DNA of 64,000 bases from an uncultured Acidobacteriota bacterium (GTDB lineage: Bacteria; Acidobacteriota; Thermoanaerobaculia; UBA5066), in contig CAVZYA010000002.1 of NCBI GenBank assembly GCA_963779415.1, positions 416,001-480,000 of the forward strand, given 5' to 3'. Below the pieces are notes generated by a model. It ran no database searches. It had not been told where the DNA came from and saw only the letters and a list, made by a program, of their open reading frames with translations. Below are positions 53,314-63,583 of the stretch, piece after piece. Numbering within the stretch: position 1 is the stretch's first letter; each line of letters opens with the position of its first letter. The position numbers and the translations under genes are program-made.

Positions 53314-53674
53314 GGGGGCGCACCGGTTTCGACGGGGCATCCTGCGATCGAGGAGCACGCCGAGCATGCCGTTTGACTCGTAAAAACGACGGCAAAATTT
53401 AGCTGCCAACAACAGCGAACTCGCTCTCGCGGCCTAATTAGAGCCGTGACGGAGGTCGGGGGGCTCGCCCGAGGCACCTCGGACTCTGGCGCGAAAGTCG
53501 GGCTGGGAAAGGTCCCGCCGCCTGAAGGACCGATCCGAGATGTTCAGGCTCGCCGCCCGCCCGGTCGCCCGGACCTGACGACGGCGCGGTTAAACAAATA
53601 AGTTCGGGCTGAGCGTGGAGAATCTCGACGTACGGTTACTTCGGACGGGGGTTCGACTCCCCCCGCCTCCACCA
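53314..53674 (+). ncRNA. ssrA: tmRNA; tag (A)ANNSELALAA* at 53405-53437
   Basis: 5' GGGGGCG pairs with 3' CGCCTCC-ACCA including G3.U70; TTCGACGGG near the 5' end; T arm GGGGGTTCGACTCCCCC; Ala-ending tag ORF. Confidence 0.97.
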
Positions 53675-53770
53675 CTCTTTCCTCCCTTGCGCGGCGTTAT
53701 CCCGGGGCCCCGGCATCGCCGCCGCCGGACGCCTCTATCTTTCGCCCTCCGGGAGGAACGGGCTCCTGTC

Positions 53771-53792
53771 ATACACGGTATCCGTGTATAAT
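53771..53792 (+). promoter_or_regulatory. higBA operator palindrome overlapping a -10 box
   Basis: ATACACGG-TAT-CCGTGTAT; TATAAT 53787-53792, 8 nt before the GTG start. Confidence 0.75.
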
Positions 53793-53800
53793 GTTCTCCC

Positions 53801-54091
53801 GTGATCCGGTCGTTCGGCGACACGGCCACGGAACAGGTCTTCTATGGGGAGGAAGGCCGGGTCGCTCGCCGGCTTCCGAAGGAGTTGTGGGCCTTGATTC
53901 GTCGAAAGCTTGACGCCCTTCAGGCGGCGAAAGCGCTGGCCGACCTGCGTGTGCCTCCCGGGAATCGCCTGGAGGCCCTGAAGGGCGATCTGAAGGGGCG
54001 GCACAGCATCCGCGTCAACGAGAAATATCGCATCACGTTCCGGTTCGAAGATGGCCATGCATGGGAGGTGCGCTGTGAGGACTACCACTGA
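53801..54091 (+). CDS. higB: HigB (RelE-family) toxin
   Basis: MIRSF, DLRVPPGNRLEALKGD..G.HSIRVN..YRI.F, C-terminal DYH. Confidence 0.93.
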   Translation: MIRSFGDTATEQVFYGEEGRVARRLPKELWALIRRKLDALQAAKALADLRVPPGNRLEALKGDLKGRHSIRVNEKYRITFRFEDGHAWEVRCEDYH

Positions 54092-54383
54092 CTCGCCCGT
54101 CGACGTCCGCCGGATGAAGCGGCCGCCCACACACCCCGGCGAGATGCTGCTGGAAGAGTTTCTCAAGCCGCTCGGAATGAGCCAGGCCAACGCCGCGCGC
54201 CGAATGGAGATTTCGACGAACCGGCTCAACGAGCTGATCCGGGGAAAGCGTGGCGTCACGGCCGACACCGCCCTTCGCCTCGCCGACCTTCTGGGTACGT
54301 CGCCCGAGTTCTGGCTCAATTTGCAGACGGGCTGGGACCTCTGGCACGCCTACCGCGCGGAGCGGTCCATCTCGGCAGCTTGA
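54075..54383 (+). CDS. higA: HigA antitoxin (HTH-Xre)
   Basis: PTHPGEML.EEFL.PL, GKRGVTADTALRL, FWLNLQ; GTG with SD GGAGGT. Confidence 0.93.
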   Translation: MRTTTDSPVDVRRMKRPPTHPGEMLLEEFLKPLGMSQANAARRMEISTNRLNELIRGKRGVTADTALRLADLLGTSPEFWLNLQTGWDLWHAYRAERSISAA

Positions 54384-54480
54384 TTCCGCGCCCTGGGCGC
54401 GCGGCCGCGAGGCGGCTCACGACGATGGCCGGCAGATCGCGATCCCGCGCCAGCCGGGCGTAGGTCTACGATCGCCGGCG

Positions 54481-55762
54481 ATGAGGGTGCTGCTCATCTC
54501 GTCCAACACCGAGCGGATCAACATGGTGACGATCCCGCTCGGGCTGGGGCTGGTTGCGGCCGCCACGCGGCGCGCCGGGCACACCGTGACGTTCCTCGAC
54601 CTCCTCTCCGAGGCCGACCCGGTCGCCGCGGTCCACCGCGCCGTGGGCGACTTCGCGCCCGACGTGATCGGAATCTCGGTGCGCAACATCGACGATCAGA
54701 CGAGAGAGGCCCCGCGCTTTCTCCTCTCCCAGGTCCGGCCGGTGGTCGAGGCTTGCCGAAGCTGCACGGACGCCCCGGTCGTCGTGGGGGGCGCGGGCTA
54801 CTCCATCTTCCCGGTCGCCGCCCTTCGCTACCTCGGCGCGGACCTCGGGGTGGCCGGTGACGGGGAAGCCGTCTTTCCCGCGCTCCTCGAGCGGCTCCAT
54901 GCGGGACGTGACCCTTCCGGGCTCCCCGGCGTTCACGTGGCGGGGCGGACGGGAGCCGCGGAGCCTTCCTTCTCGGAGGATCTGGGGACGCTCCCCCTGT
55001 GGGACGACGCGCTCCGCGCCGGGGCCGACCCGGCGCGCGAGGATCTCTGGATTCCGGTCCAGAGCCGGCGCGGCTGCCCGAACGACTGCTCCTACTGCTC
55101 GACGTCGCGCATCCAGGGGCGGCGCATCCGGACGCCGCCCGGCGCGGGAGGTCGCGCAGCACGTCGGCGCTCTCGCCGCCGCCGGCTATCGACGGATCTA
55201 CTTCGTCGACAACTCGTTCAACATCCCCGAACCGCACGCCCGGGAACTCTGTCAGGCGCTCGGCGGGATCGAGCCCCGCGTCGAGTGGCGCTGCATCCTC
55301 TATCCGCATCTCGTCCGGGAGGAGCTGGTCCGGGCCATGGCCGAGGCCGGATGCGTGGAGGTCTCGCTCGGCTTCGAGAGCGGCAGCCTCGCGGTCCTTC
55401 GCGAGATGAACAAGCGATTCACCCCGGCCGACGTCCGGGAGATCTCGGGCCTTCTCGCCGCCCACGGCATCCGGCGGATGGGCTTTCTCCTTCTCGGCGG
55501 GCCGGGCGAGACCCGGGAGACGGTCGAGGAGAGCCTCGCCTTCGCCACGTCGCTGAACCTCGAGTCGCTCCGGATCACGGTCGGGATCCGCATCTACCCG
55601 GGGACGCCGCTCGCCCGGCGGGCCCTCGAGGAAGGGGTCATCTCGGCGGACGACGATCTCCTCTTCCCCCGCTTCTACCTCGCGCCCGGCCTCGAGCCGT
55701 GGATTCACCAGCGCGTGGCGGCTCATGCCGCAACCGGCCGGGAGGCCGTTCAGAAACCATAA
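54481..55762 (+). CDS. B12-binding radical SAM protein (frameshift ~55140)
   Basis: PLGL, PDVIGISVRNID, RGCPNDCSYC (CxxxCxxC), VDNSFN, GFESGS, GGPGET, IYPGT. Confidence 0.88.
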
Positions 55763-55812
55763 CCGTAAGGAAGGCGGGCGCGTCATCAGCCCCGACGATG
55801 TCGCGTGACGAG

Positions 55813-55829
55813 TGCTATCAGTGATATCA
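55813..55829 (+). promoter_or_regulatory. FitA-type operator
   Basis: TGCTATCA-G-TGATATCA; TGCTATCA is the Neisseria FitAB half-site. Confidence 0.6.
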
Positions 55830-55853
55830 TCACGGATCGACGGAGGTGCCTCG

Positions 55854-56087
55854 ATGTCCCAGCTGATCGTCCGAAACCTCCCCGAGGACGTCGTGCGAGG
55901 GCTCAAGCTCCGGGCCGCCCGCCACGGCCGGTCTGCCGAGGCAGAGCACCGTCTGATCCTGGAAGAAGCGCTCCGCCCGAAAGCGAGGTCGAAGAGCCTC
56001 AAGGACGCGCTCCTGGCCCTTCCCGAAGTCGGTGACGATGCGGATTTCGCCCCCAGACGCGAGCGCGGACGCAGGACCCGGCTGTGA
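55854..56087 (+). CDS. FitA-like ribbon-helix-helix antitoxin
   Basis: MSQLIVRNL...V..LK.RAARHGRS.EAE.R.IL; SD GGAGG. Confidence 0.88.
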   Translation: MSQLIVRNLPEDVVRGLKLRAARHGRSAEAEHRLILEEALRPKARSKSLKDALLALPEVGDDADFAPRRERGRRTRL

Positions 56088-56518
56088 AGGTCCTCATCGA
56101 CACGAATGTCATCTCCGAGTTGCGAAAGGGGGCGCGCTGCGATCCGAACGTGGCGGCGTGGTTTGCCGCCTTGCCGGCCGACGGCATCTATCTGAGCGCC
56201 CTCGTCGTCGGCGAGATCCGGCAGGGGATCGAACGCATTCGGCGCCGGGACGCAAAGTCCGCGCGCTCTCTGGACGCATGGCTTCGGAGGCTCGTCGCCG
56301 CTCACGACGAAAGAATCCTCCCCGTGGACCGAAGAGTGGCGGAGGAATGGGGGCGAATGAACGTCCCGGATCCGGTGCCGGTCGTCGACGGCCTCATGGC
56401 CGCCACCGCAAAGGTCCACGACCTGATCCTTGCGACCCGGAACGTGAAGGACGTTTCCGGAACCGGCGCACGGGTCGTCAACCCCTTCGAGCTGTCCCCG
56501 GGCGTGGCGTCCCCATGA
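56084..56518 (+). CDS. vapC: PIN-domain VapC/FitB toxin
   Basis: LIDTNVISELRK, EI..G, DGLMAATA, TRNVKD, NPF. Confidence 0.92.
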   Translation: MKVLIDTNVISELRKGARCDPNVAAWFAALPADGIYLSALVVGEIRQGIERIRRRDAKSARSLDAWLRRLVAAHDERILPVDRRVAEEWGRMNVPDPVPVVDGLMAATAKVHDLILATRNVKDVSGTGARVVNPFELSPGVASP

Positions 56519-56536
56519 AGTACGGTCAGCGCCAGA

Positions 56537-56673
56537 GAAGGGGATGAAGACCCCGCCTTCCCGCTGCGCAGAGGAACCGGGCTGGTGGCACCCAGATGGC
56601 GGCTCGTCTACCAGGTTCTCGAGAAGGGGCGAACGGTGAAGACGCTTCGGATACTCGCGCACTACGAATGGCG
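56537..56673 (+). pseudogene. Internally deleted yefM-3'/yoeB remnant
   Basis: Matches 57210-57279 joined to 57456-57530 at a CGGCTCG microhomology. Confidence 0.85.
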
Positions 56674-56741
56674 CCGTCATTCTATTTTCCCGGTCCGGTT
56701 CGGCCGGCCGGATCTTTGCGCCGCCGTGTAGCATTCCTCTC

Positions 56742-56930
56742 ATGGGCAAGCCGCAGAAATCCTCCTTCGATCTCGCGATGGAACGGCTCGACGCCGCCGA
56801 TGGCGAGTCAGGGACAAAGAAGGCACCGCTGAGCCCCAGGCAGAAAGAGGAGATCGCCGAGGTCCGGCGCATCGCCTCTTCCAGCCTCGCGGAGCGGGAG
56901 ATCAAAGCGATCCGGAACCGCACGGAGTAG
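56742..56930 (+). CDS. Small hypothetical protein, probably a truncated conserved protein
   Basis: KSSFDLAMERL..PLS..QK.EIAE.R..LAEREI; TAGCAT box 7 nt before ATG; ends at repeat copy A. Confidence 0.55.
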   Translation: MGKPQKSSFDLAMERLDAADGESGTKKAPLSPRQKEEIAEVRRIASSSLAEREIKAIRNRTE

Positions 56931-56966
56931 CGCCGTCGCCTCCAACCGCGTCGCCGGCCCTGGCCG
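56931..56966 (-). repeat. Array repeat copy A (MBL-gene fragment, degenerate ssrA-like core)
   Basis: CGCCTCCAACCGCGTCGCCGGCCC; minus strand reads GPATRLEA. Confidence 0.75.
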
Positions 56967-56971
56967 GAACC

Positions 56972-57000
56972 TTGCCAATCCGTACGCTTTTCCGTACGAT
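56972..57000 (+). promoter_or_regulatory. yefM-yoeB promoter and operator
   Basis: TTGCCA-17-TACGAT; CGTACG palindromes at 56981 and 56993, 12 bp apart like the E. coli yefM TGTACA cores. Confidence 0.75.
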
Positions 57001-57018
57001 TCGAGCCGCGAGGTCCTC

Positions 57019-57261
57019 ATGCCCACCATTCGAGCCACCGAAGCGCGCGCCCGGCTCTACGGCCTTCTCGACGAGGCGGCCGAGACGCACGAACCGATCC
57101 GGATCACGGGACGCCGGAAGAACGCCATCCTCGTATCCGAGGAGGACTGGGACGCGATCCAGGAGACGCTCTACCTTCTGTCGGTTCCGGGGATGCGCGA
57201 GTCGATCCGGAAGGGGATGAAGACCCCGCTTTCCCGCACCTCGAAGGAACCGGGCTGGTGA
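57019..57261 (+). CDS. yefM: Phd/YefM antitoxin
   Basis: TEARARLY.L.D....HEPI.IT....AIL.S.EDW.AIQETLYLLS.PG. Confidence 0.92.
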   Translation: MPTIRATEARARLYGLLDEAAETHEPIRITGRRKNAILVSEEDWDAIQETLYLLSVPGMRESIRKGMKTPLSRTSKEPGW

Positions 57262-57527
57262 CGGCCGGCTGGCGGCTCGCCTTTACGTCCCAGGCCAGGA
57301 AGGACGCGAAGAAGATCGCAGCCGCCGGGCTCCGGCCGCAGACCCAGAAGCTCCTCGATCTCCTCGCCAAGGACCCTTTCGCTTCCCCCCCGAGGTTCGA
57401 GAAGCTCGTCGGCGACCTTTCCGGGGCGTACTCGCGGCGGATCAACATCCAGCACCGGCTCGTCTACCAGGTTCTCGAGAAGGAGAGGACGGTGAAGGTG
57501 CTTCGGATGTTCACGCACTACGAATAG
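57258..57527 (+). CDS. yoeB: Txe/YoeB toxin
   Basis: EKLVGDLSGAYSRRINIQHRLVY, C-terminal HYE. Confidence 0.94.
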   Translation: MTAGWRLAFTSQARKDAKKIAAAGLRPQTQKLLDLLAKDPFASPPRFEKLVGDLSGAYSRRINIQHRLVYQVLEKERTVKVLRMFTHYE

Positions 57528-57586
57528 CGTTCTCCCCGCCTCCACCGGCGTCGCCGGCCCCGACCGCACGCTCGTTGAGCGCGGAT
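57528..57586 (-). repeat. Array repeat copy B
   Basis: CCCCGCCTCCACC 57534-57546 then GGCGTCGCCGGCCCCGACC..GCGCGGAT; minus strand reads PRSTSVRSGPATPVEAGRT. Confidence 0.85.
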
Positions 57587-57606
57587 CCGAGGGTTGATAA
57601 TCGCTG

Positions 57607-58089
57607 GTGATGATGGAGTTCGGTGAGCTGAAGAGGATTCTCGCGGCGTTCGAGAAGGAAAGCGTCCGATACGTCCTCGTCGGCTCGATGGCCATGGCCG
57701 CGCAGGGGCTGGTCCGCGCAACCAGGGACGTGGATTTCTTCGTCGCACCGGATCCGGAGAACGTCGATCGACTTCGTCTGGCGTTGAGAACCCTCTTCGA
57801 AAACGACCCGAACATTGATCAGATCTCGGCGGCCGACCTTGGGGGCGATTACCCGGCCGTTCAATACACCCCCCCCGACGCCCGCTATTCGATGGACATC
57901 CTCTCGCGGCTCGGCACCGCATTCCGCTACGAGGACCTGGAGTGGGAGATCGTCACCGTGGACGGGGTTTCGGCTCGGGTTGCCACGCCCCGTATGCTCT
58001 ACAGGATGAAGAAAGATACGGTCCGCCCCCAGGACCGCATGGACGCCGAGACGATCCGAAGCCGATTCGGGATTGAGGAGCAGCCGTGA
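57607..58089 (+). CDS. Nucleotidyltransferase-fold protein (putative TA component)
   Basis: Y.LVGS.A...QG..RATRDVDF (hG[GS]x..DxD), L..MK....R.QD..D. Confidence 0.75.
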   Translation: MMMEFGELKRILAAFEKESVRYVLVGSMAMAAQGLVRATRDVDFFVAPDPENVDRLRLALRTLFENDPNIDQISAADLGGDYPAVQYTPPDARYSMDILSRLGTAFRYEDLEWEIVTVDGVSARVATPRMLYRMKKDTVRPQDRMDAETIRSRFGIEEQP

Positions 58090-58583
58090 GCGTCCGGAAG
58101 TTCCGCTCGGCAGACGAGATGCCGGCACCGCCGCCGCTCACCCCACTCGATCCCGAGAACCTGCGGATTGCCTGCGAGCTCTCGAGCCTGGAGCTGCTCC
58201 GTCCCGTCCGGCGCACCCCCGGCGTGCGTAAATTCCGCTCGGTGGACGAGATGTCCCGGGCTCAGGAGCGGTCGGAAGCGGAATCGACCCCAGTGAACCG
58301 ACAACCACTTCCCCCGGAATCGCACGACCTCATTCGGCGGATCGCCGCAAGGTACGGAGTCCGGGACGTTCGTGTATTCGGCTCGTTCGTCCGGGGCGAG
58401 CAGCGGCCCGAAAGCGACCTCGATCTGCTGATTCATCTCGAAAAAGGCCGCGGCTTTTCCGATCTTCTCGGTTTCTGCGAGGAGGTCGAAAGCGCCCTCG
58501 GCAGGCACGTCGATGTCGTGACCGACGACGGCCTCAGTCCCTTCATTCGCGACCGGGTCCTGGCCGAAGCCGTGCCACTGTGA
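58086..58583 (+). CDS. VRKFRS-repeat small protein fused in frame to a MntA-like minimal nucleotidyltransferase (internal GTG 58293)
   Basis: Two VRKFRS.DEM motifs, then VFGSFVRGEQRPESDLD (GSx10DxD), LGRHVDVVT, EAVPL. Confidence 0.82.
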   Translation: MSVRKFRSADEMPAPPPLTPLDPENLRIACELSSLELLRPVRRTPGVRKFRSVDEMSRAQERSEAESTPVNRQPLPPESHDLIRRIAARYGVRDVRVFGSFVRGEQRPESDLDLLIHLEKGRGFSDLLGFCEEVESALGRHVDVVTDDGLSPFIRDRVLAEAVPL

Positions 58584-58912
58584 AGGACGACGGACTCTAC
58601 CTTCGACACGTTCACGAGGCCATCGTCCGGATCCAGGAGTTCACCTCCGAAGGCGAAGCGGCCTTTCGACGAGATCTGAAGACCCAGGACGCGGTCATCC
58701 GCAACCTTCAGGTGATCGGTGAGGCGGCGAAGAAGGTCTCCGCCGAGACTCGGGCCGCCCATCCCGACGTCCCCTGGAAGAGCATGACGGGAATGCGGGA
58801 CCGGATCGTTCACGACTACTTTGGCGTCTCGCTCGAAATCGTCTGGGACGTCGTGGCGAATCACCTTCCGCCGATCCGCATTCAACTTCAGAAGCTGATC
58901 TCTGCCGGTTGA
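58580..58912 (+). CDS. hepT: HepT (DUF86 HEPN) RNase toxin
   Basis: QDAVIRNL.VIGEAA, VPW, RDRIVHDY (Rx4HxY). Confidence 0.9.
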   Translation: MKDDGLYLRHVHEAIVRIQEFTSEGEAAFRRDLKTQDAVIRNLQVIGEAAKKVSAETRAAHPDVPWKSMTGMRDRIVHDYFGVSLEIVWDVVANHLPPIRIQLQKLISAG

Positions 58913-59140
58913 CGTCTCCCTCCGCCACCCCCCGCCCCGCGTCCACCAGAACCCGCGCCATCCCCGCCTCCACCCGCGTCGCCGGCCCGGACCGCGCGCT
59001 ACTCGGCCGCGGGTTGCCGGTGCCGAGAAGCGTGATGCGGAGGGACCCCGGCGGGGGAGGCGCCTACGCGGCCACGAGCCGCAGGTCGGCGAATAGCGCG
59101 ACCACGGCTCCTAACCGCAGCGATTTCATGGGGAGGGGGT
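58913..59140 (-). pseudogene. Array repeat copy C: 5' fragment of an RNase Z-like MBL hydrolase gene with a premature TAG
   Basis: ATG 59129: MKSLRLGAVVALFADLRLVAA*APPPPGSLRITLLGTGNPRPSSARSGPATRVEAGMARVLVDAGRGVAE. Confidence 0.85.
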
Positions 59141-59230
59141 CTGGGGCGCGGGAGCCGTACTCTCTCTCCGATCGCTCGGCTCCGAATCCCAAGGTGCAGG
59201 AGTAAAGTAGCCGGGAAAGAAGGCGAGGCG

Positions 59231-59458
59231 ATGTCCCAGACGAGGCTCTTGACCGCAATCATCGAAAAGGAAGGCGACGGATACGTCGCCCTGTGCCCGG
59301 AGGTCGACGTCGCCAGCCAAGGCCAGAACGTCGAAGAGGCACGCTCGAACCTCAAGGAGGCCCTCGAGCTCTTCTTCGAGTCGGCCGATGCCTCGGAAAT
59401 CGCCCAGCGCTTCGGCAGCGAAGTCTTCATAACGCAGGTCGAAGTCGCCGTTGGGTAG
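59231..59458 (+). CDS. hicB: Short HicB antitoxin
   Basis: IIEKEGDGYVALCPE.DVASQG..VEEA..NL.EALELF. Confidence 0.9.
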   Translation: MSQTRLLTAIIEKEGDGYVALCPEVDVASQGQNVEEARSNLKEALELFFESADASEIAQRFGSEVFITQVEVAVG

Positions 59459-59672
59459 GCTGCGGGTTCTGTCGGGAAGAGATGTCTGCGCGATCCTTTC
59501 CCGGCACGGATTCGAGCTGGTTCGGCAGCGAGGGAGCCACGCTGTGATGCAGGCTCGCGATACTTCGGGAACAGTGACTGTCCCCGTTCCCCTGCACTCC
59601 GAGCTGAAGATGGGGACGCTGCAGTCGATCATCAGGCAGTCCCGCCTGCCGCGGTCCCTCTTCGAAATCTGA
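59451..59672 (+). CDS. hicA: HicA toxin
   Basis: L..HGF...RQRGSH, VP.H.EL..GTL.SI. Confidence 0.92.
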   Translation: MGRLRVLSGRDVCAILSRHGFELVRQRGSHAVMQARDTSGTVTVPVPLHSELKMGTLQSIIRQSRLPRSLFEI

Positions 59673-59866
59673 GCGTCGCGTCGTCCCCGCCTCCACCAGC
59701 GTCGCCGGCCCCGACCTCGCGCTCGACGGGCGCGGATTGCCGGCGCCGAAAAGCGCGATGCGAAGGGACGCCGGCGGGGGAGGCGCATCCGCGGCAAGAA
59801 GCCCGGAGGCGGCGAAAAGCGCCACCATGATCCTCGCCCGCAGCGATTTCATGGGGAGGGAGTTTA
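59673..59866 (-). repeat. Array repeat copy D: MBL 5' fragment with its own -10 box and a perfect 14-nt ssrA 3' core
   Basis: ATG 59852: MKSLRARIMVALFAASGLLAADAPPPPASLRIALFGAGNPRPSSARSGPATLVEAG; CCCCGCCTCCACCA 59685-59698; about 81% identical to copy C over 177 nt by hand alignment. Confidence 0.88.
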
Positions 59867-59888
59867 GGAGTCGGGGAAGTGGCAGGAG

Positions 59889-59942
59889 TTGACTTGCTTT
59901 GAATGTTTACTATAATTAGAGCGTTTACGGAAACGTAAACAT
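59889..59942 (+). promoter_or_regulatory. Sigma70 promoter plus inverted-repeat operator of the AbiEi-like gene
   Basis: TTGACT-16-TATAAT (59911); GTTTACG-GAAA-CGTAAAC 59923-59940 and a further GTTTAC just before the -10. Confidence 0.75.
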
Positions 59943-59949
59943 AGACCTT

Positions 59950-61077
59950 ATGGCGAACGAATCGGATCTGGAGCAGCGAGGGCGACGAGCGCTGGAGAAG
60001 TACTTCTCAGACTCCGGCATTGCCGTGCGCTGGCTGAGGAGCCAATCCCGTGAGGGCTGGAGGCCGGACGCGGAACTCGACCTCGCACTCCCGAACGGGG
60101 AGCGGCGGCGGTGCATCGTCGAGTTTCAGTCGAATGCCCGCCGGCTGCCGATCGAACACGCGCTTCTTCAGCTGAGAAACCAGCTGCTGCGCTCCTCGCA
60201 AATCGCGCCGGTCTCTTCCTCCTGGCGGGATCTGTCCCGGATCGCCCAGCCTGTGGTGGTCGCGGAGCATCTTGGCCGGCCGATGCGTGACTGGCTTCGC
60301 CGTGAGGGAGTCTGGTTCGGGGACCTCTCGGGAAACCGGTTTTTCTCGGCGCCGGGCTTGCTGGTGGACCGGGAGGTCGCGGAGAAGTCCGGCAAGAGCC
60401 GGGAGCCTGCCCCGAGCGTCTTCGCCGACAGGAACTCGCGTCTCCTTCGCTATCTTTTCCTGCGAGGGCGGCAGGAGATCGGAGTGCGGGAACTTGCCGG
60501 GAAACTGGGAATCAGCGCCTCATCCGTGTCGAACGGCCTGAAGAAGCTCGAAGAGATGAGCTACCTGGAGCGAAAGAGCGGGGACATCCGCCTCCTGGCC
60601 CGGGAGGACCTCCTCGAGGAGTGGGTCTCGTTCTACCGGCCGCGATTTCGTCGCCAGGTCGAATCCCGCTACTACGTCCATGCCAGAAGCGCGGAAGCCG
60701 TGGTGGAGAAGATCCGCTCCAGCCCGCTGGCGCGCGATCCAGGTTACGCACTCGGCCTTCATGCCGGCGCGTCGCTCGTCGCGCCGTTCGTTCAGTTCCA
60801 GGAGGCGCACGCCTACGTTCCGCCGGAGTCGGGGAGTCTCGAACAGCGTCTGGTAGCGGCTCTGGGCGCAAAGCCTGCGGAAGCCGAGGCGAATCTGGTC
60901 TTCCTCGAGCCTTTCTACAAACACTCCGTGCTCTTCGAGGCGCGAGACGTCAAGGGCGTCCGCGTGGTCAGCGACCTGCAACTCTATCTGGACCTGATGT
61001 GCTACCCGCGGCGGGGAAAAGAGCAGGCCGAGGTTGTCCTCGAGCGACGGCTGAGGCCCGCCTGGTCGAAATCGTGA
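59950..61077 (+). CDS. AbiEi-like (type IV TA) antitoxin/regulator with wHTH
   Basis: D.SGN, GVRELA..LGIS.SSVS HTH, LLEEW, ANL, VS.LQLYLDL...PRRG.EQAE. Confidence 0.75.
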   Translation: MANESDLEQRGRRALEKYFSDSGIAVRWLRSQSREGWRPDAELDLALPNGERRRCIVEFQSNARRLPIEHALLQLRNQLLRSSQIAPVSSSWRDLSRIAQPVVVAEHLGRPMRDWLRREGVWFGDLSGNRFFSAPGLLVDREVAEKSGKSREPAPSVFADRNSRLLRYLFLRGRQEIGVRELAGKLGISASSVSNGLKKLEEMSYLERKSGDIRLLAREDLLEEWVSFYRPRFRRQVESRYYVHARSAEAVVEKIRSSPLARDPGYALGLHAGASLVAPFVQFQEAHAYVPPESGSLEQRLVAALGAKPAEAEANLVFLEPFYKHSVLFEARDVKGVRVVSDLQLYLDLMCYPRRGKEQAEVVLERRLRPAWSKS

Positions 61078-61390
61078 AACTCGGCGGATTCGTCCATGCG
61101 CTGAAAGCTCTCGAACCCCGCCTCGCCGATATCGTCATCGTCGGCGGGTGGGCCTGGTTCCTGTATCGAAAGTACCTGGGCGGCGCGCGGAAGCTGCCCG
61201 GCGAATTTACCCTCGACGTCGATGTCGTCCTTCCGCGGCCGCTTCTGCCCGGGCCTGATCTGTACGACCTGCTGAAACGGGCCGACTTCGAGTACGAGCA
61301 ATCCGGGGACGACACGCCTCCGGTTACGCGGTACGCATGGCCTTCCAGACAGGAAGCAAAGGTCACCGTCGACTTTCTGACACCGGCACG
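61074..61390 (+). pseudogene. Truncated AbiEii/GSU2403-like nucleotidyltransferase toxin
   Basis: GTGA overlap with the upstream gene; IVIVGGWA..T.DVD..VDFLTP, then an abrupt switch to HEPN sequence. Confidence 0.7.
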
Positions 61391-61633
61391 AGCAGGGTCC
61401 TCCAGCTGGCTCTTACACGTCTGGTTGAGATCGTCGGCGAGGCTGCCTCCCAGATCCCCAGAGAAGATCAGCAGCGGTTCTCAGATGTCCCGTGGCCGGC
61501 AATCATCGGAATGCGCAACCGGCTGGTTCACGCGTACATTGATGTCGATCTCGACGTGCTCTGGAGTACGGTGACGACGGACTTGCCGGCTCTGATAACG
61601 CTCCTGGAGCGGGCAGCCGGCTCGGCGTCGTAG
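61391..61633 (+). pseudogene. 5'-truncated HepT (DUF86)
   Basis: LQLALTRLVEIVGEAA..VPW..IIGMRNRLVHAY.DVDLDVLW. Confidence 0.82.
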
Positions 61634-61774
61634 ACACAGACTGTTTCCGGAGTTCGAAGCTGCCGCAAGGCCGCGGGTGTTCCGATCGAAGCCGGTTTCG
61701 AAACGAACCGCCGTAGCGGTTGTGTGTCGGGAAGGGAGCCTGCGAGGGAGCCTGAAGGGTAAGATCAGCGCGAT

Positions 61775-62097
61775 ATGGAATCGGCCCGAATCGACCTGAC
61801 GAAGCGGATAGCGGCCTCGCCGGAGATGATCGCCGACTTCTGCCGCCGGCACCGGATTCGCCGGCTGTCGCTGTTCGGGTCGGTGCTGAGGGAAGACTTC
61901 CGGGCGGAGAGCGACATCGACGTGCTCGTGGAGTTCGAGCCGGACGGGGTTCCGAGTTTCTTCGAGCTGGTCGGAATGAAAGAGGAACTGGTCTGATCTT
62001 CTCGGCCGCAATGTGGACCTGAAGACTCCGAAGGGTTCAGCCCTTATTTCCGTGACCAGGTGCTTCGGGAGGCTCTCCGCTCCATGTCGCGGCATGA
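61775..62097 (+). pseudogene. MntA-like nucleotidyltransferase, frameshifted near 61991 and 62038
   Basis: IADFCRRH.IRRLSLFGSVLREDF..ESDIDVLVEF; after the shift LLGRNVDLKT..SPYFRDQVL.EA. Confidence 0.8.
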
Positions 62098-62191
62098 CGA
62101 GCTGATCGGTCGATCTTGACGTCGCTCGATCCGCGACGAATGGGTGGACCTTCCCGCTCTGATTGCGCAGCTCCGCCGGACCTGCCGATGA
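62084..62191 (+). pseudogene. Internally deleted HepT remnant
   Basis: MSRHD start overlapping the mntA end, then VDLDV and DLPALIAQL resembling the HEPN C-terminus at ~61544-61610. Confidence 0.6.
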
Positions 62192-62909
62192 CGGATGCCG
62201 ATGGCGCTGGAAGGCCGTACCTCTCGGCGAGGCGGCCTGCATCTCAAGACTGTTGCCGCTCCAGCCGTCGCGGACGCCGGGGTTTCCGCAGGTAGTACAG
62301 ATGGCGGCAAGAAGAAATCCATGTCCGCAAGCGTGTTGTATGCCTTATAGGGCATTGCTAGTTGCGGTCCGGAAACGAGGCTAGGGTGAGGGATCGGATG
62401 TGGTTGCATCTCGGCAGCGGTCGGGCTTTCGGTGGACGCTGAGGCTTAATCGTTCACCCCGATCGCGCATGGGTCCGGACGATCCGGTCGGCTTTGCCAC
62501 CGCTGGACTACGGGTGGCGGACGGGTCGATGGAGCCGAATCTCCTCGCCGTCGCTCGTCATGCTGGCGGTGAACTTTTCATCTCGCGGAATCAAAACCTT
62601 TCAAATGGCCGTCCACAAACCTTGCGATTAGCCGCACAACATCGAACGGGGTCGCGTCTTGCATCTCTATTATAGGTGGCGAACGCGCGGCGCGGCGGGG
62701 AGTGGCTGCAGCGGAGGAGGATCGAGGGCGCGGCCCGGCGGGCTCTTCATGTTTCGGAACGCGAACAAAAGTTCCGGTTCCTTTTCCGCCGCACCCTTTT
62801 CGACCGGTAGCTCGCTCTTCCGGTTCCGTTCGCTCTACGGGCCGTCGTAGAGGTGGGCGGTGTCGCCGGGCTTGATCCCGGCGGCCTCGATCGCCACGCG
62901 ACCGAGAAG

Positions 62910-62930
62910 GTATATACTTGGAGTGTATAC
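62910..62930 (+). promoter_or_regulatory. Putative vapBC operator
   Basis: GTATATAC-TTGGA-GTGTATAC imperfect inverted repeat 15 nt upstream of vapB. Confidence 0.55.
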
Positions 62931-62945
62931 AGGGGGTGACTTGAC

Positions 62946-63179
62946 ATGCGGACCACCAGGATCTTCAAGAGCGGAAACTCGCAGGCCGTTCGCCTGCCGA
63001 AGGACTTTCGGTTCAGCGTCCGCGAGGTCGAGATCCTTCGAAGAGGAGAAGAAGTGGTGCTGAGAAGGAAACCTCACACCGCCGGCGATCTCTTCCGGGC
63101 GCTGAGCGCCATCCGCCTGCCGGAAGACTTTCCCGACACGATTGAGGACAAGTCGGCCGAAAGCCGCCGGGCGCTCTGA
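62946..63179 (+). CDS. vapB: AbrB-type VapB antitoxin
   Basis: IFKSGNSQAVRLPKDFRF...EVEI.R.G..V.L. Confidence 0.93.
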   Translation: MRTTRIFKSGNSQAVRLPKDFRFSVREVEILRRGEEVVLRRKPHTAGDLFRALSAIRLPEDFPDTIEDKSAESRRAL

Positions 63180-63583
63180 TGCGCTATCTCCTCGACACCG
63201 ACACGCTCATCTACATCCTGAAGCGCCGGCCACCGGACGTCGCGGCGCGCTTCGAGAAGATGTCTCCCGAGGATGTGGCGATCTCGATGATCTCGATGGC
63301 TGAGCTTATGTTCGGTGCGGAGAAGAGCGGGAGTCCAGCTCGTGCGCGCCGAGCGGTCGAGAAGATCGCCGAGGTGCTTCGTGTGCTTCCGCTTGACGAA
63401 GGTGCGGCCCGGGTTTACGGGAAGTTGCGGGCGCAGCTCGAGAAGCGCGGAACGCCCATTGGCGCCTTGGACACCCTCATCGCCGCCCATGCATTGTCTT
63501 TGCGGGCCACGCTCGTCACGAACAACACGAGGGAATTCGCAAGGGTTCCGGGCCTTCAGGTGGAGAACTGGGTCGCTGGTTGA
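63179..63583 (+). CDS. vapC: VapC PIN toxin (tRNA-fMet endonuclease-like)
   Basis: YLLDTD, EL.FGAEKS, IG..D.LIAAHA, LVTNN.REF.RV.GL..ENW. Confidence 0.94.
   Translation: MRYLLDTDTLIYILKRRPPDVAARFEKMSPEDVAISMISMAELMFGAEKSGSPARARRAVEKIAEVLRVLPLDEGAARVYGKLRAQLEKRGTPIGALDTLIAAHALSLRATLVTNNTREFARVPGLQVENWVAG

Follow-up and report, generated by a model that had tools for sequence, protein, structure and literature searches.

Toxin–antitoxin operons beside ssrA in an uncultured Acidobacteriota bacterium: anatomy of a candidate recombinase-less transfer hotspot

The stretch of DNA analyzed here, a 64,000-nucleotide (nt) window (C2:416001-480000) of the genome of an uncultured Acidobacteriota bacterium of soil, carries directly downstream of the transfer-messenger RNA (tmRNA) gene ssrA an array of toxin–antitoxin (TA) modules. 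These comprise six intact pairs, three remnants and two nucleotidyltransferase (NTase)-type modules whose state is uncertain; every one lies on the + strand. The array forms the first 10 kb of a ~24-kb interval between ssrA and a HIRAN gene with its neighbor amiC. This interval is enriched in toxin genes, varies among relatives, contains many decayed genes and holds no recombinase of the families searched. On balance, we think it probable by a little that the ssrA-HIRAN/amiC interval is a long-lived, recombinase-less hotspot of horizontal transfer, a graveyard of islands in which addictive TA operons have persisted.

The toxin–antitoxin array

The genome examined comprises 4.36 Mb in 3 contigs and is 92% complete. 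Modules were identified through Pfam and NCBIfam scans of the open reading frames (ORFs) downstream of ssrA and are listed in Table 1; coordinates called window-equivalent carry the numbering of the window past its end. An earlier note on this DNA, made from its letters, had proposed ~11 co-oriented TA modules downstream of ssrA, and the scans confirmed this list nearly item by item, with every module on the + strand. The intact operons are HigBA, FitA-VapC, YefM-YoeB, MntA-HepT, HicBA and VapBC. Adjacent pairs matched models of type II, IV and VII TA families over the cut-offs; HicB, the short NTase (160 aa) and, with NCBIfam, the VapC at 56084 fell below theirs. In the last pair of the array, VapC scored 155.5 bits with NF047863, over the cut-off, and VapB scored 66.6 bits with NF047862, below its 100-bit cut-off, and 61 bits with NF040493 (TA_anti_VapB), over its 60-bit cut-off. 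Set against the whole genome, the enrichment exceeds chance: 3 of its 23 PIN matches, two of four HepT matches and two of three HicA matches fall within ~14 kb, placing 7/30 of these toxin matches in 0.3% of the 4.36 Mb.

Table 1. Features of the ssrA-HIRAN/amiC interval and integrases of related ssrA islands. Positions are those of the window unless marked WE (window-equivalent) or given with a locus name.
Feature	Position	Strand	Support or remark
ssrA (tmRNA), left anchor	53314-53674	+	ARAGORN; Rfam RF00023, 153 bits
higBA palindromic operator and -10 box	53764-53800		
HigB; HigA	53801-54091; 54114-54383	+	PF05015 3.7e-20; TIGR02607 113 bits
B12-binding radical SAM gene, cargo, probable pseudogene	54475-55762	+	TIGR04072; frameshifted near 55130
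FitA-like antitoxin; PIN VapC	55853-56087; 56084-56518	+	PF22513 2.9e-18; PF01850 1.8e-11
Remnant, yefM 3' end joined to yoeB 3' end	56537-56673	+	repeats D4/D5
62-aa ORF	56742-56930	+	truncated paralog of 99-aa ORF at WE 66651-66950 (-)
Repeat copy A, degenerate, ~30-36 nt	56931-56966	+	family D3; MBL-gene fragment on - strand
YefM; YoeB, intact	57019-57261; 57258-57527	+	PF02604 5.7e-20; TIGR02116 88.6 bits
Repeat copy B, 60 nt	57527-57586	+	
Short AbiEii/DUF6036-type NTase, 160 aa	57607-58089	+	PF08843 21.5 bits, sub-cut-off; Atlas
MntA; HepT	58086-58583; 58580-58912	+	PF01909 2.4e-15; PF01934 1.5e-31; NF047752, NF047751
Repeat copy C	58913-59152	+	ORF 58695-58973 (-)
HicB; HicA	59231-59458; 59451-59672	+	PF07927 2e-18; HicB weak, PF21748 3.9e-4
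Repeat copy D, 199 nt	59677-59875	+	
AbiEi_2-type regulator (59950-61077) with N-terminal half of NTP_transf_8 NTase	59950-61400	+	PF09952 5.4e-11; PF12281
HepT fragment	61337-61633	+	profile 22-119 of 120
MntA fragment, tail continuing in two other frames	61775-61996	+	region 61337-62116
VapB (AbrB/MazE-type); VapC (tRNA-fMet-type PIN)	62946-63179; 63179-63583	+	
GH13/CBM48 glucan-branching-type gene, 607 aa	63681 to WE 65504	+	Pfam, NCBIfam
VapBC (-) and second HicBA	WE 65794-67612		past GH13
Tyrosine integrases in G010, G022, G018	L068 71-1264, L073 66-1259, L072 83-697		

Of the two NTase-type modules, the short NTase received an Atlas feature score of 0.97 to AbiEii/DUF6036 clusters, and the MntA downstream of it carries ~70 extra N-terminal residues with two VRKFRS repeats (repeat D12), the motif VRKFRS(A/V)DEM being encoded by two 32-nt repeats at 58090-58121 and 58222-58253. 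The earlier note had listed a separate "VRKFRS partner" of the NTase; this is actually the in-frame N-terminal part of the MntA ORF, an extension that may have arisen through in-frame fusion of a small gene that once partnered the upstream NTase. The second module, an AbiEi_2-type regulator, is preceded by a strong sigma-70-like promoter (59889-59916, 11/12 positions matched) and followed by an NTP_transf_8 fragment that spans profile positions 3-115 of 218.

Decay is seen in the three TA remnants, the truncated NTase, the radical SAM gene and, further downstream, an AcrB/HlyD pair. In the first remnant, an internal deletion of 173 nt has joined the yefM 3' end to the yoeB 3' end, and the stop codon is mutated. 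In the other two, the HepT fragment and the MntA fragment after which only ~10 codons of HepT remain, the region is 74-76% identical to two MntA loci of a same-genus genome (G003). The radical SAM gene matches TIGR04072 positions 1-205 in one frame and 208-411 in another, and the change of frame without loss of profile positions implies a single-base indel (55125-55135); a contig of a related organism from public run X4 has 1 nt fewer at 55135. This gene is probably a real pseudogene, an assembly indel being the other possibility.

Extent and variability of the interval

On the right, the conserved neighbor is the HIRAN gene with an amiC-type amidase gene (window-equivalent 77.8-80.6 kb). In four relatives (G008, G009, G011 and G012) ssrA and amiC lie 0.25-1.6 kb apart, so the insertion is sporadic and the site is empty in relatives, and the distance rises to 11 kb in G002, 16 kb in G003 and ~24 kb here. 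Because these distances differ so among relatives, we take the whole ~24 kb from ssrA to HIRAN/amiC as the variable interval. Past the window end it contains the rest of the GH13 gene, a VapBC pair on the - strand, the 99-aa ORF, a second HicBA, an M20 peptidase gene, a sortilin/BNR gene in split frames, and an AcrB-type RND pump gene with its HlyD partner. The last two are broken over at least five reading frames (window-equivalent 72585-76877) and look like a heavily decayed pump, in the same interval in which GH13, the M20 peptidase and amiC are intact. The GH13 gene has no DNA match in the ssrA regions of congeners and is cargo within the variable interval, not its right border; the earlier description, which ended the array at GH13, thus stopped short of the VapBC (-) and second HicBA beyond it.

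A 35-kb segment surrounding ssrA was set against the corresponding regions of 14 relatives, with one genome per species; the unpublished genomes G025 and G030 underlie none of our claims. The ssrA gene itself is 91-93% identical to that of five congeners, and the DNA right after it differs in all four same-genus genomes with at least 3 kb there (G002, G003, G006 and G007; G005 contributes only 600 nt downstream of ssrA). In G003, ssrA is followed by YefM-ParE, a Ser/Thr kinase, MntA with a split HepT, yefM with a deleted yoeB, and HigBA, and then by WYL, HNH, HIT, AbiEii and BrnTA. G002 has a cystathionine synthase, Phd-VapC, MntA-HepT and metabolic genes, G006 phosphoenolpyruvate-utilizing enzymes and G007 a lipoxygenase. 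In G021, from another genus, HigBA directly follows ssrA and a VapC is also present. The Pfam scan gave no TA domains in the scanned ORFs of G006, G007, G013, G017, G019 and G024 (up to 12 kb each; 3 kb for G007), a scan that may have missed small or foreign genes in the relatives because ORFs failing a filter on third-position GC content (GC3) were dropped beforehand.

Some modules are shared with G003 but reordered. HigBA is 91% identical in nucleotide sequence to the G003 copy, compared with 82% for the flanking core; yet it is directly next to ssrA in this genome and 4.5 kb away in G003. Likewise, the 173-nt yoeB deletion has an identical junction in both genomes. Content and order at ssrA therefore vary among relatives, so that neither outcome named by the earlier note as refuting its reading, identical content and order across divergent relatives or ordinary attC sites (see below), is seen.

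Among the ssrA regions of relatives that were read, most show a clear GC-rich hairpin terminator 3' of ssrA. Here 53675-53800 contains no T-run terminator. The promoter of higBA and its operator palindrome follow ~90 nt after ssrA, which could allow transcription to run on from ssrA into higBA.

Recombinases, attC sites and defense systems

The first reading of this DNA had seen no integrase, transposase or convincing attC site; in profile searches, none of five recombinase and transposase families matched near the locus. The tyrosine recombinase family PF00589, which includes IntI, has six matches genome-wide, the nearest 78 kb upstream of ssrA and none in the interval. The serine recombinase families PF00239 and PF07508 have no match in this 92%-complete genome, PF00665 (rve) has five, none of them near the locus, and PF01609 (DDE_Tnp_1) has none genome-wide. 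Furthermore, tblastn with the integrases of the relatives' ssrA islands detected no remnant of them in the interval at E values up to 10.

Sedentary chromosomal integrons and clusters of attC sites lacking integrases (CALINs) consist of small, co-oriented cassettes, each followed by a related repeat, and many of their cassettes are TA operons. The array shares this layout, in which co-oriented modules are each followed by a related repeat, and one could picture it as an integron-like or otherwise dedicated gene-capture platform, or as an adaptive defense or anti-addiction library kept by selection on the array as a whole. We consider this very improbable. Unlike integrons and CALINs, the locus has no IntI nearby and no hairpin-forming attC: 53675-79000 (25.3 kb) contains 0 R''/R' box pairs, against a mean of 1.9 in 100 shuffles, and the direct repeats of the array (copies A-D, described below) fold no better than shuffled sequences (z -0.8 to +0.6), so we rejected the integron reading. 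PADLOC returned only a candidate PDC-S09 (MntA-like) and a weak AbiEii match, and many modules are broken; a reading as a defense system was rejected on this result, which contains no established system. The repeat junction was also found nowhere else in a related setting in the collections scanned: a 27-nt junction pattern had 0 matches in 185,579 species genomes, and a 23-nt pattern matched two metagenome contigs, in unrelated contexts and with no homology to this genome. The suggestion of the earlier note that the array might be a dedicated accretion site or defense library is thus not shown.

Direct repeats and their ssrA-like core

Four direct repeats, copies A-D, stand directly after toxin or ORF stop codons in the orientation of ssrA, are 79-90% alike and bound the YefM-YoeB, NTase-MntA-HepT and HicBA modules. 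On the - strand, copies C and D code for the beginning of a secreted protein of metallo-beta-lactamase (MBL) fold, with its start, its signal peptide and the initial ~58-72 codons, whereas A and B cover smaller parts of that region; we call these fragments MBL'. Copy C includes the start codon of the MBL gene and a signal peptide containing one TAG, and continues as far as LVDAGRGVAEG. A full-length homolog of 323 aa (Lactamase_B_2, PF12706) lies in the congener G004 between genes for a pirin and a gamma-glutamyltranspeptidase (GGT). The present genome has no copy of the full-length gene, and the repeats, the 199-nt copy D included, occur in it only at this locus.

Copies B, C and D start with CCCCGCCTCCACC(A), identical to the last 13-14 nt of ssrA, which places an ssrA-like core, matching the exact 3' end of ssrA, on or close to their left edge. 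In copy B, CCCCGCCTCCACC stands 6 nt past the yoeB stop; in copy D, a 14-nt match precedes the first 58 MBL codons. As candidate displaced ssrA 3' fragments there are three copies (13-14 nt) plus a degenerate fourth; they lie in direct orientation, are short and overlap MBL coding sequence.

It is conceivable, if rather unlikely, that the array is a tandem series of integrative or cis-mobilizable elements targeting ssrA, in which each unit would have entered through site-specific recombination at the 3'-terminal ssrA core, the repeats would be displaced attachment (att) sites, and the integrase would be lost or would act from elsewhere in the genome. The cores share the orientation of ssrA and lie 6-48 nt from a toxin stop codon, the modules are all co-oriented, and the ssrA 3' 16-mer recurs only once genome-wide at up to one mismatch. 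Moreover, all 11 intact MBL orthologs examined have CTCGTCGAG at this place, agreeing with the core at 9-12 of 14 positions, whereas the copies here agree at 13-14. Elements of this kind exist in relatives: in G010, G022 and G018 a tyrosine integrase (397 aa) reads toward a directly adjacent 28-nt duplicate of the ssrA 3' end. G010 also has contigs whose first 54 nt are those of the 3' end of ssrA, suggesting that tandem islands break the assembly there. A 38%-identical homolog of this integrase is encoded here at C1:37957-39072, one of the non-Xer tyrosine recombinases of the genome together with that at C2:1591982-1592584. There is also a precedent in Dehalococcoides, where, in the account of McMurdie et al. 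2011 (PMC3146451), islands at ssrA are bounded by 20-bp repeats, 16/31 carry a serine recombinase (DsiB) module and 15/31 lack an integration module. The locus resembles that system in having several units behind ssrA with candidate direct copies of the ssrA 3' end between them and units devoid of a recombinase; it differs from what is described there in that the match is 13-14 nt long within a gene fragment, no serine recombinase is present and the cargo is TA operons rather than dehalogenases.

Several observations nonetheless argue against such elements. The block of identity is 13-14 nt, compared with 28 nt in the relatives' islands, and it is itself MBL coding sequence (LVEAG), with a same-genus ortholog already at 12/14. 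The 14-mer has a BLAST E value of 0.043, and an unrelated 14-mer match exists elsewhere in the interval. The left edge is not constant, because copy C extends 45 nt further left than B and D, up to the HepT stop codon, and ssrA itself is followed by DNA that does not resemble what follows the repeats. The related TA array of G003 lacks any ssrA-core repeat, and the ssrA regions of the 14 relatives contain no copy of the core apart from the tmRNA gene itself. Islander, as presented in PMC4383910, rejects tDNA fragments that overlap conserved coding parts (Pfam-A domains), and the present copies are located within an MBL coding fragment. Weighing the core, its place in MBL coding sequence and the shifting edge together, we hold it plausible but unproven that the repeats are att scars, the match to ssrA being suggestive only.

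Contigs of three soil-metagenome runs from one study (X1-X3), perhaps made from the source sample, match the array at 99% identity or more. Contigs of X1 and X3 bridge yoeB, repeat B and the NTase, and one of X1 (58760-59079) bridges the HepT stop and copy C, so these junctions are not peculiar to the present assembly. The contigs are short and of low depth, none spans the array, and they gave nothing reliable on excision or skipping: the skipping joints have short sides of 21-29 nt, the exception being one X1 contig with a skip of 110 nt within hicBA, and neither these joints nor the uncovered parts carry weight. A joint in X4 that leads back from the stop codon of HicA to position 58935 amounts to no more than a lead.

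Repeat-flanked toxin operons elsewhere

Duplicated ends of host genes tightly flank several TA operons at other loci. A VapBC pair at C1:1138634-1139541 lies between direct repeats of 74 nt (96% identity) that correspond to the 5' end of a GAF-PP2C gene. The same site is empty and single-copy in G007 and G004, holds other inserts of 1.6-2.9 kb in G001, G002 and G003, and in G005 contains the same VapBC without the second repeat. A second VapBC (-), at C1:372580-373508, has 71 nt from the 3' end of an aminotransferase gene repeated on its two sides (84.5% identity); no empty site is definable there, the right flank being a multi-copy family. A BrnT/BrnA-like pair (C2:1706647-1707425) at the 3' end of the GGT gene is flanked by a 72-nt duplication of that end. 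Beyond the 5' end of GGT, where G004 has its MBL gene, lies low-GC, foreign-looking DNA. In G003, an MntA-HepT pair comes after HIRAN, and 54 nt of the HIRAN 3' end stand duplicated on either side of the pair (94% identity; L040 1-54 and 834-887), unlike in the present genome, where amiC directly follows HIRAN.

These loci bring to mind TA mini-cassettes that would spread with no recombinase. In such a scheme a circularized TA operon carrying a short copy of host sequence would integrate through a Campbell-type single crossover, leaving a duplication of 46-199 nt, and at ssrA successive cassettes would have stacked on an MBL' pad. In a crude test, 6/30 toxin loci compared with 4/200 random loci had flanking direct repeats that were 30 nt or longer and no more than 2.5 kb away, and a seventh flanked toxin locus, HicA, was spotted by eye. 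The order of [yefM-delta-yoeB][HigBA] is, in addition, circularly permuted between G003 and this genome. The loci of the ssrA interval are, however, not independent of one another, and outside them ~3 of ~22 are flanked, one weakly (46 nt, 80%); the baseline of 4/200 is raw, counting all four random matches whatever the quality of their repeats. The G005 VapBC with its single repeat also speaks against the scheme, as does the lack of any circular form or reliable skipping joint in the short, low-depth run contigs, and the mechanism itself is hypothetical. We regard it as distinctly unlikely as the origin of the ssrA array. The broader proposal, that TA operons of this Acidobacteriota-like lineage are cassettes moving by short-homology single crossover and that the ssrA stretch is an integron-like pad on which an MBL edge mimics the ssrA att core, also seems to us unlikely.

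Discussion

The reading we favor is that of a transfer hotspot in which the islands have decayed and their TA operons have stayed. In this model, foreign segments would have entered beside ssrA, some probably via site-specific integration of the tRNA/tmRNA type, as still seen in relatives, and others probably via homologous or illegitimate recombination. Cargo and recombinase genes would then have decayed or been deleted, and the TA operons would have persisted because loss of an active pair leaves the cell poisoned by the longer-lived toxin, a ratchet that would enrich the site in TA modules. Modules would later have been duplicated, truncated and reordered in place; the MBL' fragments would mark the junctions of such duplication or recombination, and their ssrA-like core is perhaps an old att scar. 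The earlier note had offered the addictive residue of serially decayed islands as one of its two explanations. This fits better than the other, the decay being visible in the TA remnants, the frameshifted radical SAM gene and the fragmented AcrB/HlyD, while we infer the addictive part from toxin activity that is predicted only.

That last point is one of several that weigh against the model. All 11 modules of the window are co-oriented, which is a better fit to directional insertion than to random decay. Six intact pairs with promoters of their own make the array more than debris. The genome is 92% complete, in 3 contigs, and what it lacks could include a recombinase gene. Lastly, the frameshifts may in part be assembly errors, a concern countered by the intact GH13, M20 peptidase and amiC genes.

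To our knowledge, the movement of chromosomal TA loci is still poorly explained. Read in this way, the locus offers a clean case of addictive genes dominating a transfer hotspot after its recombinases and cargo have decayed, and it would be missed by island finders that require an integrase. If the pattern holds more widely, duplicated host-gene ends around TA operons would point to TA spread without a recombinase. In the main texts of the literature searched, we found no description of TA cassettes with duplicated host-gene ends or of a TA-only array at ssrA.

The kind of locus is already known, from recombinase-less hotspots, from tandem ssrA islands, including integrase-less ones, and from the Islander concept, and is here unusually pure in TA modules. 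Among the hotspots surveyed by Oliveira, Touchon, Cury and Rocha (2017, PMC5635113), 45% are given as encoding an integrase and 27% as lacking any mobility protein. The interval resembles the recombinase-less hotspots of that survey in its variable content between conserved flanks, its fast turnover in relatives and its lack of a mobility protein of the families searched; it departs from them, as they are characterized there, in its TA purity, the strict co-orientation of its first 10 kb and its internal direct repeats. With the tDNA islands of Islander (PMC4383910) it shares the ssrA anchor and the empty sites in relatives, the classical form being that of G010, G022 and G018. It differs from the islands of that description in having no integrase in the interval and in its candidate tDNA fragments, which are short and lie in MBL coding sequence.

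Minor features of the array

The 62-aa ORF upstream of copy A has no match in Pfam, NCBIfam or PADLOC, and its 99-aa form was placed by Atlas among clusters of hypothetical proteins. Between the MntA fragment and the final VapBC, ~0.8 kb (62117-62945) is devoid of a recognizable gene, with 0 Pfam matches in 12 frames and nothing from Rfam, which gave only the tmRNA. This stretch includes a 117-nt element (62452-62567) that is single here and present twice in G003 (L040 5980-6096 and 7338-7454) at 91-92% identity, well above that of the flanking DNA; neither Rfam nor Pfam matches it. The VapBC together with GH13 is flanked by direct copies of a 55-nt sequence (84% identity; 62642-62696 and window-equivalent 65594-65648), which contains a promoter-like TTGC..TATA motif; a tandem 22-nt duplication precedes the second copy.

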